Sequence record: OQ446694.1
DNA length: 64,000 bases
Strand: one strand, 5' to 3'
Source: Escherichia phage Killian
The position numbers and the translations under genes were made by a program. Shown piece by piece: positions 20,019 through 21,165 of this stretch (within the stretch, counting starts at the first letter, position 1; the number at the start of each line of letters is the position of its first letter). A model generated the notes under the pieces. It searched no databases, was not told the origin of the DNA, and was given only the letters and a program-made list of their open reading frames with translations.

Positions 20019-20090
20019 TCCCAAAATATGGCCCTGGGTGGAATTGAACCACCATCTGGCGATTATGAGTCGCTTGCTTGAACCTTCCAG
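20019..20090 (-). tRNA. tRNA-Ile (anticodon CAU; T4 tRNA-Ile homolog, often auto-called tRNA-Met)
   Basis: Manual fold: acceptor GGCCCTG/CAGGGCC, anticodon loop CTCATAA, T-loop GGTTCAATTCC. Confidence 0.75.
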
Positions 20091-20096
20091 CTACAG

Positions 20097-20169
20097 GGCC
20101 TTGATATGCTGATTGACGGAATCGAACCGCCGACATCCTCATTACAAGTGAGGTGCTCTACCTACTGAG
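20097..20169 (-). tRNA. tRNA-Thr (anticodon UGU)
   Basis: Manual fold: acceptor GCTGATT/AATCAGC, anticodon loop CTTGTAA, T-loop GGTTCGATTCC. Confidence 0.8.
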
Positions 20170-20176
20170 CTAAATC

Positions 20177-20263
20177 AGCGAAATTACGGAGGCGATAGGA
20201 TTTGAACCTATGAGTCGCCGGAGCGACTGCCGGTTTTCAAGACCGGTGCATTAAACCACTCTG
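20177..20263 (-). tRNA. tRNA-Ser (anticodon UGA), type II with long variable arm
   Basis: Manual fold: acceptor GGAGGCG/CGCCTCC, anticodon loop CTTGAAA, variable arm GTCGCTCCGGCGACT. Confidence 0.8.
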
Positions 20264-20265
20264 CC

Positions 20266-20339
20266 ACGCCTCCAGTCTCCGCGGCAGGATTTGAACCTGC
20301 GACATTCTGCTCCCAAAGCAGACGCTCTACCAAACTGAG
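20266..20339 (-). tRNA. tRNA-Pro (anticodon UGG)
   Basis: Manual fold: anticodon stem CTGCT/AGCAG with loop TTTGGGA; 2 nt from tRNA-Ser (dimeric precursor arrangement). Confidence 0.8.
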
Positions 20340-20352
20340 CTACACGGAGTAA

Positions 20353-20423
20353 ATTAAATTTGAGCGGATAATGAGAATCGAACTCACATCATCAGATTGG
20401 AAGTCTGAGGTAATACCATTATA
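20353..20423 (-). tRNA. tRNA-Gly (anticodon UCC)
   Basis: Manual fold: acceptor GCGGATA/TATCCGC, anticodon loop CTTCCAA, T-loop GTTCGATTC. Confidence 0.75.
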
Positions 20424-20429
20424 CGATAT

Positions 20430-20516
20430 CCGCAAACTTTGGTACGAGAAGTGGGACTCGAACCCACAAGGAAATCATTCCGCAGCATTTTAAGTGCTGT
20501 GCCTTTACCAATTTGA
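20430..20516 (-). tRNA. tRNA-Leu (anticodon UAA), type II, CCA encoded
   Basis: Manual fold: anticodon stem CAGCA/TGCTG with loop CTTAAAA, long variable arm, 3' ACCA. Confidence 0.8.
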
Positions 20517-20532
20517 CCATTCTCGCTCTATA

Positions 20533-21165
20533 TTATTTATTACGTGAAAAAGATTGTTCTATCAATTCTGGACACTTTCGTTCTATCCATTTTCTAGCTT
20601 TTTGTGGGCTTATACCTATTATTTTAGCAGCTTTACTAACCCATCCAAATTTAGAATAATCGATTTTAACTAATTCTTCGTAAATTTCATCAGTTAAAAT
20701 CTTTTCATTAATATTTACCAGTAAATGATATAATTTATTATCATTAGCAATTTTAATGAATCTTTTATAGTTTCCGCCTTTACTTAAACCTAATGAAGTA
20801 ATTGCAGATGATATAGTAGCCGAATTTAATAGTGCGTTTAAAATTTCTTCATCACTAACATTATAACGCTTTTTATTATTTTTAATATTTTTACCAGCAA
20901 AAGTATCAGTTTGCGAATGGCAATTTGGACATAATAATCTTAAATTTGATTTAAGATGATTTTTGTTATTTCCATCAATATGGTCTAATTGCAGAACAAT
21001 ATGCTTATTTTGCCATTTTGAAATTTTACAAATTGCACACTCATATGGAAAAATATTTTCTTTTATTATTTTGTCTTTCAGCTTTCCTGTACTAAAATTT
21101 GGATGTTTTCCTTCAAAAATTTCAGCTAATTTAGTATCCATAATATAATTCCCAATTATTAACAA
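20533..21165 (-). CDS. HNH homing endonuclease (zinc-finger HNH core plus C-terminal helix-turn-helix-like DNA-binding region)
   Basis: CxxC...HIVLQLDHIDGNNKNHLKSNLRLLCPNCH HNH/zinc motif; gene abuts the 5' end of the tRNA operon. Confidence 0.8.
   Translation of the reverse strand: MLIIGNYIMDTKLAEIFEGKHPNFSTGKLKDKIIKENIFPYECAICKISKWQNKHIVLQLDHIDGNNKNHLKSNLRLLCPNCHSQTDTFAGKNIKNNKKRYNVSDEEILNALLNSATISSAITSLGLSKGGNYKRFIKIANDNKLYHLLVNINEKILTDEIYEELVKIDYSKFGWVSKAAKIIGISPQKARKWIERKCPELIEQSFSRNK

Follow-up and report, generated by a model that had tools for sequence, protein, structure and literature searches.

An HNH endonuclease gene in place of tRNA-Gln

The stretch analysed here, hereafter 'the window', is 64,000 nt of Escherichia phage Killian (OQ446694.1), and all coordinates are positions within it. 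At the head of its tRNA operon, on the minus strand, a gene for an HNH endonuclease replaces tRNA-Gln. The order in T4 is trna.2, a 97-nt spacer, tRNA-Gln (73 nt), 1 nt and tRNA-Leu, in agreement with an earlier note, made from the sequence alone, which placed T4 tRNA-Gln directly upstream of tRNA-Leu. Compared with T4, the window retains the upstream spacer almost unchanged plus the first 9 nt of tRNA-Gln itself (TGGGAATTA, 21146-21154, minus strand); there then follow TATT (21142-21145), the HNH open reading frame (ORF) from ATG to TAA, the hexamer TATAGA (20527-20532, minus strand) and tRNA-Leu. A cassette of ~616 nt (TATT, ORF, TAT) substitutes for tRNA-Gln nt 10-71. The 3′ junction reads TATAGC or TATAAC in other phages carrying the gene ('carriers'), and its terminal (A)GC form matches the last bases of T4 tRNA-Gln and the spacer. 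The piece left of the 5′ end is useless as a tRNA, which marks tRNA-Gln as the ancestral occupant of the site.

The alignment with T4 settles the question, posed in the note, of whether the gene replaced tRNA-Gln or was inserted beside it. Insertion beside an intact or decayed tRNA-Gln is rejected for this phage, only the 9 nt at the 5′ side and possibly 2-3 nt at the 3′ side being left. Relocation is likewise ruled out: ARAGORN detected no tRNA-Gln in the whole 64 kb, Rfam detected no eighth tRNA between 18000 and 23500 at E up to 1, and the body of T4 tRNA-Gln (nt 10-73) had no match in the window with ≤3 mismatches allowed. The suspected absence of tRNA-Gln from the cluster is therefore confirmed, and extends to the window as a whole. 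An endonuclease encoded by an intron in a tRNA gene was also considered and rejected: Rfam, run over 18000-23500 at E up to 1, matched neither a group I intron nor any other ribozyme. The ORF stands as a gene of its own, with the spacer on one side and tRNA-Leu on the other, and is neither intron- nor intein-encoded.

The HNH gene most likely occupies 20533-21141 (minus strand), encoding an F-TflIV/HegA-like protein of 202 aa from an ATG at 21141. The program-made ORF list, and with it the earlier note, had instead begun the gene at a TTG at 21165, giving a 210-aa version that reads through the conserved T4 spacer. The start is placed at the ATG because the profile of PHROG 14736 ('HNH endonuclease') begins at residue 9 of the longer ORF (residues 9-210 covered, E 6e-124) and because public records annotate the gene as 609 nt, starting from the ATG equivalent to 21141. 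The stop codon (20533-20535) stands where it had been put, and both the ORF and the profile matches bear out that the gene abuts the 5′ end of tRNA-Leu, at 20526; the gap is the 6 nt of TATAGA, however, and not the 17 bp first given.

Seven tRNA genes were found in the window by ARAGORN, with Rfam in agreement, all of them on the minus strand: tRNA-Leu(UAA) (20440-20526), which is now the first of the operon, tRNA-Gly(UCC) (20362-20433), tRNA-Pro(UGG) (20275-20349), tRNA-Ser(UGA) (20186-20274), tRNA-Thr(UGU) (20107-20179), a CAU tRNA (20029-20100) and, beyond segB, tRNA-Arg(UCU) (19242-19318). This is the order that had been read by manual folding, but the identity then given to the CAU tRNA, Ile, is less secure. 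It stands where T4 has tRNA-Ile, but as a different sequence variant, identical to that of phage teqhad and of a G8-like contig; its anticodon stem and T arm are unlike those of T4 tRNA-Ile, and it may decode either Ile or Met. The equivalent tRNA of T2L was named tRNA-Met in the study of SegB (PMC2330249). Between the CAU tRNA and tRNA-Arg, in the same position as in T4, lies segB, a GIY-YIG homing endonuclease gene (19322-19987, minus strand), whose ORF scores 26.6 bits against the Pfam GIY-YIG model (cut-off 22.6) and whose 221-aa product is 83% identical to T4 SegB over 221 aa. The proposal that two homing endonuclease genes (HEGs) bracket one tRNA operon is correct as far as predicted gene content goes, HNH at one end and SegB at the other. 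Downstream of tRNA-Arg, 18900-19241 (minus strand) is 95-97% identical to the T4 region encoding the stable RNAs rnaC and rnaD, matches no Rfam family, and is closed by a strong terminator-like hairpin at 18925-18902.

The cassette lies behind a conserved operon leader (21155-21240, minus strand), the same as stands upstream of tRNA-Gln in T4 and 96-99% identical across carriers and non-carriers. An element resembling a MotA box, TGCTTTA (21248-21242), is followed after 12 nt by TATTAT (21229-21224), an arrangement that we take to fit the T4 middle-promoter consensus; the record of phage Lutter annotates a promoter at the same place. Situated directly behind this apparent promoter of the tRNA operon, the cassette is presumably co-transcribed with the tRNAs. 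The tRNA-Gln remnant supplies the GGGA found 8 nt before the HNH ATG, which may serve as a weak Shine-Dalgarno sequence; there is a leader hairpin at about 21163-21187, and RNA folding pairs the GGGA region with upstream sequence, with a weak score (z = -1.96). Processing of the tRNA-Leu 5′ end by RNase P would trim the messenger 6 nt past the HNH stop codon and should keep expression of the endonuclease low, by analogy with segB. Such restraint by processing has been proposed for both segB and the T5 enzymes (PMC2330249).

The protein and its relatives in phage tRNA arrays

The N-terminal half of the protein carries an HNH domain with the pattern CxxC...CxxCH, in which C35, C38, H54 (within LDHIDGN), N66, C71, C74 and H75 are invariant in 18-19 homologues of 36-69% identity. 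Two HNH families of PHROG were matched, at E 6e-124 and 2e-29. Helices make up the C-terminal half, at the end of which stands a conserved motif resembling a helix-turn-helix, GWVxKAxKIIGIxPQK. An AlphaFold2 (AF2) model is locally confident (predicted local confidence, pLDDT, 86 overall), with strands and then a helix at residues 51-75 (pLDDT >90), and gives no confident arrangement of the domains (predicted template-modelling score 0.43). These features of sequence and model predict a member of the HNH, or His-Me finger, endonuclease family. Foldseek returned weak partial matches to folds in the Protein Data Bank (PDB; E ≥0.7), among them the HNH domain of McrA and homeodomain-like helix-turn-helix folds; a sequence-profile search of the PDB gave one unrelated weak match only.

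Judged by sequence, the Tequatrovirus protein is a clear homologue of HegA/F-TflIV of phage T5, with 35% identity over 170 aa (BLASTP, E 2e-22; tblastn, E 5e-15) and similarity spanning both the HNH core and the C-terminal DNA-binding helix-turn-helix. F-TflIV is a site-specific endonuclease according to Akulenko et al. 2004, as that report is cited in PMC2330249 and PMC5714182; the F-Tfl endonucleases of T5 are encoded within the tRNA gene cluster (PMC2330249), and F-TflIV has been grouped with the T4 Mob proteins among the His-Me finger enzymes (PMC5714182). Both genes are free-standing ORFs in a phage tRNA cluster, directly beside a tRNA gene, hegA following tRNA-Ile2 at a distance of 24 nt within the tRNA gene region of T5, and the Tequatrovirus gene preceding tRNA-Leu by 6 nt. 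The two differ in phage family (Demerecviridae for T5, Straboviridae here), in an extra N-terminal region of ~60 aa in HegA, and in that hegA is followed by ORFs and has visibly displaced no tRNA gene.

Nearer at hand, T4 SegB offers a parallel of position: its gene belongs to the same operon, is wedged between tRNA genes and stops just a few nt short of the next tRNA, it is polymorphic in presence among T-even phages with tRNA content differing between alleles, and it too has been proposed to be checked by tRNA processing of its mRNA (PMC2330249). SegB belongs to the GIY-YIG enzymes, a catalytic family unrelated to HNH, and it recognises a conserved T-arm motif and cuts many tRNA genes. The MobA-E proteins of T4 share with our protein their origin in free-standing T-even HNH genes and the combination of an HNH domain with a separate DNA-binding region; Mob proteins nick their targets and are preferentially inherited (PMC2988022). 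MobE, the only Mob protein compared, nevertheless could not be aligned in the HNH region, the best local match (E 0.007) falling in a non-catalytic stretch, and the HNH protein matches 252 phage records by tblastn, as against ~500+ Tequatrovirus genomes with mob genes. Descent as a Mob paralogue was rejected on these two grounds, the lack of similarity to MobE in the HNH region and a tblastn match count that is too low.

The closest non-identical homologues in a large protein collection (58-68% identity) occupy the syntenic position in other T4-like contigs, where they come after gp2, gp1, 57A, 57B and trna.x genes and open the tRNA region. One of these (contig L011, 68% identical) has an intact tRNA-Gln(UUG) that ends 15 nt before the start of the gene. 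Tracing more distant homologues, 5/6 of those examined have tRNA genes close by: four lie inside tRNA arrays (L014, L017, L018 and L024, of which L018 and L024 have the gene 40 and 51 nt after tRNA-Gln(UUG)) and one has tRNAs ~500 nt downstream (L026), while the available stretch of the sixth contig (L025) contains no tRNA. A profile-guided scan of IMG/VR returned 80 relative loci, with at least one tRNA within 1.5 kb in 70/80 and a same-strand tRNA in 60/80. The share of the T4 genome lying within 1.5 kb of a tRNA is, by rough estimate, a few per cent.

The ORF ends ≤10 nt from, or inside, the 5′ end of the next tRNA in 23/80 of the IMG/VR loci, and in 13/27 cases the neighbouring tRNA on the downstream side is a Leu isoacceptor. 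Two unrelated contigs (L073 and L096) have the arrangement tRNA-Gln(UUG), HNH, tRNA-Leu with both tRNAs intact. At several loci the ORF, lacking a stop codon of its own, runs on into the tRNA and stops at nucleotides 8-10 of that gene (TAG or TGA; tRNA 5′ ends at 3094 in L014, 3049 in L017, 1746 in L040 and 1836 in L047), and an overlap of exactly 10 nt between ORF and tRNA recurs in at least eight loci. Since these stops lie within the tRNA, cleavage by RNase P would yield a non-stop mRNA. As a separate observation, a T4-like IMG/VR contig (L007) carries near its reduced tRNA cluster a tRNA-like gene with anticodon UUA (6580-6673), reported by ARAGORN as 'tRNA-Stop', which could be a tRNA of the ochre-suppressor type.

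Two alleles among T4-type phages

The 761-nt HNH region was present at full length in 63 phage records, at about 98.7-99.5% identity, the HNH gene itself being 98.7-100% identical, and carriers among the matches listed were all T4-type phages of Escherichia, Shigella, Salmonella and Yersinia. In some records, that of ACG-C40 included, the annotation of the gene is 'HNH endonuclease' or 'H-N-H endonuclease F-TflIV', and several GenBank records label it 'similar to T5 TflIV'; a description of the Tequatrovirus HNH gene, or of the replacement of tRNA-Gln, was not found in the open-access literature. A chimeric query, made of the HNH ORF and the tRNA-Gln body and run against phage records, matched 60/60 listed carriers in the HNH part only, at one place per record and with no match to a T4-like tRNA-Gln anywhere in them, and matched ~490 further records in the tRNA-Gln part only; two records of this search had matches at two places. 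Among the tRNA genes annotated in teqhad, ACG-C40, JEP6 and Pu-Krd-SF5, tRNA-Gln is likewise missing. A second query, consisting of the two flanks joined without insert, revealed in even samples of its matches just two allele sizes, ~400-413 nt (Gln type) and ~885-966 nt (HNH type), and 0/57 Tequatrovirus-type rows lacked both. (IMG/VR had been searched with the trna.2 protein, yielding 6 loci that provide Gln-type comparators; the survey was made instead with these designed BLAST queries.) The HNH allele is thus found in about 12% of sequenced T4-type phages, or about one in nine, and the expectation that relatives without the HNH gene keep tRNA-Gln holds, 57/57 sampled records having a Gln-sized or an HNH-sized allele. 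As is characteristic of HEGs, the gene is present or absent at one fixed site among close relatives.

Comparison of seven carriers (the window, T4_ev151, teqhad, Pu-Krd-SF5, JEP6, ACG-C40 and phiD1) showed junctions and insert length to be identical in 7/7, on backgrounds that differ in the presence of segB, of Tyr/Asn/His tRNAs downstream and of a 171-aa ORF upstream. Across these carriers the HNH gene is 98.7-99.7% identical to that of the window, while neighbouring genes range over 72-99%. A cassette more uniform than its flanks in divergent genomes is a further trait of HEGs, and is consistent with horizontal spread. We consider it probable, on these sequence comparisons, that the 202-aa ORF is a free-standing HNH HEG of the T5 HegA/F-TflIV family which converts the tRNA-Gln allele to its own. 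During mixed infection with a T4-type phage that has tRNA-Gln, the DNA of this recipient would be nicked or cut by the enzyme within or beside that gene, the tRNA-Gln/tRNA-Leu junction being the likeliest place; repair by recombination, with the HEG-bearing genome as template, would give the recipient the HNH allele at the cost of its tRNA-Gln, and the carrier would itself be immune because its own recognition sequence is deleted. That the cassette stands in place of tRNA-Gln nt 10-71 is observed; that homing brought it there we infer.

The flanking sequences bear on the proposed immunity. Over 104 nt upstream and 420 nt downstream there were 38 variable columns, 0 of which separate carriers from non-carriers, and immunity by point substitutions in the flanks was accordingly rejected; the sole consistent difference between the two groups is that the tRNA-Gln body is missing in carriers. 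Should the enzyme be active and leave its own genome uncut, the determinant of immunity, and with it at least part of the recognition site, would have to lie in the deleted tRNA-Gln body or across its junctions.

The two nuclease genes of the operon occur in all four combinations: segB without HNH in T4 and, together with tRNA-Gln, in the G8-like contig; neither in contigs L004 and L005; both in the window; and HNH without segB in teqhad, ACG-C40 and phiD1. They therefore assort independently, a result that matters for a different account in which the HNH gene is a mere passenger, inactive or in decay, spread by ordinary recombination in a hyperplastic region or by co-conversion initiated by SegB. 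SegB does cut many tRNA genes, tRNA-Gln and tRNA-Leu of T2L among them, and drives conversion of the region (PMC2330249), and the window is itself mosaic, its left flank matching other phages than its right. The passenger account is nonetheless unlikely: the HNH allele is found in the three phages without segB named above, segB coexists with tRNA-Gln in T4 and the G8-like contig, and the ORF is intact in 7/7 carriers with its catalytic residues invariant. Of the 17 sites that vary in the ORF among these carriers (phiD1 has two Ns besides), 14 are synonymous and 3 non-synonymous, which points to purifying selection.

A nuclease under selection might instead be kept for some other benefit to the phage, such as excluding competitors, cutting host DNA or countering defence, with the loss of tRNA-Gln being incidental or itself selected. 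Phage HEGs can act in marker exclusion (PMC2330249), and SegB has been linked to escape from Septu defence through amplification of the tRNA locus (PMC13096335). We regard a benefit of this kind as improbable here, given that the sequence offers no pointer to a role other than homing, that a strictly either/or pattern at a single site, with junctions all alike, marks a HEG allele, and that so small a minority of genomes carry the gene.

More weight attaches to a history in two steps, in which the HEG first inserted cleanly at the tRNA-Gln/tRNA-Leu junction and tRNA-Gln nt 10-71 were deleted later. In its favour are the intact Gln-HNH-Leu arrangements of the two unrelated contigs and the 68%-identical homologue located just downstream of an intact tRNA-Gln in the T4-like contig; against it, tRNA-Gln and HNH occur together in 0/60 listed carriers and 0/57 sampled Tequatrovirus records. 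The single junction seen in 7/7 carriers fits one origin and does not reveal the number of steps. Such a sequence of events is conceivable, if somewhat doubtful, and would alter the history rather than the nature of the element, the derived allele being the one that now circulates in Tequatrovirus.

The mosaic structure of the region extends beyond the cassette. The window comes from a mosaic Tequatrovirus, and the phage collection searched contained no exact match to it, the best matches covering 94-95% at 98-99% identity. Around the HNH gene (16500-24000), the left flank (ORF171, trna.2 and trna.3) agrees with the Gln-type contig L004 at 98.5-99.7% identity, and the right flank (tRNAs, segB and tRNA-Arg) with T4_ev151 and the G8-like contig at 97-100%; as the two flanks match different phages, the nuclease gene sits at a recombination boundary. 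The 171-aa ORF (21241-21756, minus strand; PHROG 2290, of function not known) lies between trna.2 and the operon leader. The window, teqhad, phiD1 and L004 have it, and T4, T4_ev151, JEP6, ACG-C40 and Pu-Krd-SF5 lack it, independently of the HNH or Gln allele. Rearrangements were also seen further along the operon. In the Tequatrovirus-type phages AR1, KIT03, PhiZZ30 and bov10K1, homology to the cluster of the window ends after tRNA-Gly, where AR1 and KIT03 annotate a segD-like endonuclease and T6 has tRNA-Thr; this suggests a third nuclease-associated rearrangement in the same operon. In phage Lutter, an HNH carrier (L107, 1-551), tRNA-Ser is followed directly by a 483-nt coding sequence, not by tRNA-Thr.

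Proposed homing and the tRNA repertoire

Several points weigh against homing into tRNA-Gln by a HegA-like enzyme. The proposed target site is deduced solely from what carriers lack, and the near-identity of the cassette could also be explained by ordinary recombination in a hotspot or by SegB-driven co-conversion. At the level of the protein, the Pfam HNH model (PF01844) scores 17.2 bits, below its gathering cut-off of 21.4, and the whole-chain AF2 model had no significant match in the PDB by Foldseek. The enrichment of relatives beside tRNA genes looks large against a rough base rate only. Distant relatives, moreover, share mainly the catalytic domain, so that their location is suggestive and says little about the DNA specificity of this protein.

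Within these bounds, a wider pattern can be proposed tentatively, namely that the gene is one tip of a large undescribed clade of HNH HEGs specialised in phage tRNA arrays. Members of the clade would use the junctions between tRNA genes as conserved homing sites, in particular the 5′ flank of tRNA-Leu and the boundary between tRNA-Gln and tRNA-Leu; their ORFs would end at or inside the next tRNA, often with the stop on nt 8-10, so that RNase P limits expression, and in the T-even phages their spread would cost a tRNA gene.

The tRNA sets of phages are usually explained by codon usage and, more recently, by escape from host defences that cleave tRNAs. Here, one classic tRNA gene of the T4 operon has been lost in about 12% of sequenced T4-type phages, and the sole consistent change is a selfish nuclease gene in its place. 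Part of this is already known, the gene being annotated in dozens of public genomes and the family, with its habit of residing in tRNA clusters, being familiar from T5. If homing into tRNA-Gln is true, the locus would provide a clean natural example of a HEG spreading by deleting a dispensable host gene, and a second independent driver, beside SegB, of tRNA-cluster mosaicism in T-even phages. It also yields a prediction of the substrate, the tRNA-Gln/tRNA-Leu junction. The case is otherwise incremental, that of a fairly ordinary mobile nuclease gene, and the part most worth following is the family-wide link to tRNA junctions: were the clade reading to hold, selfish nucleases, rather than codon usage or anti-defence selection, would drive part of the variation in phage tRNA repertoires.

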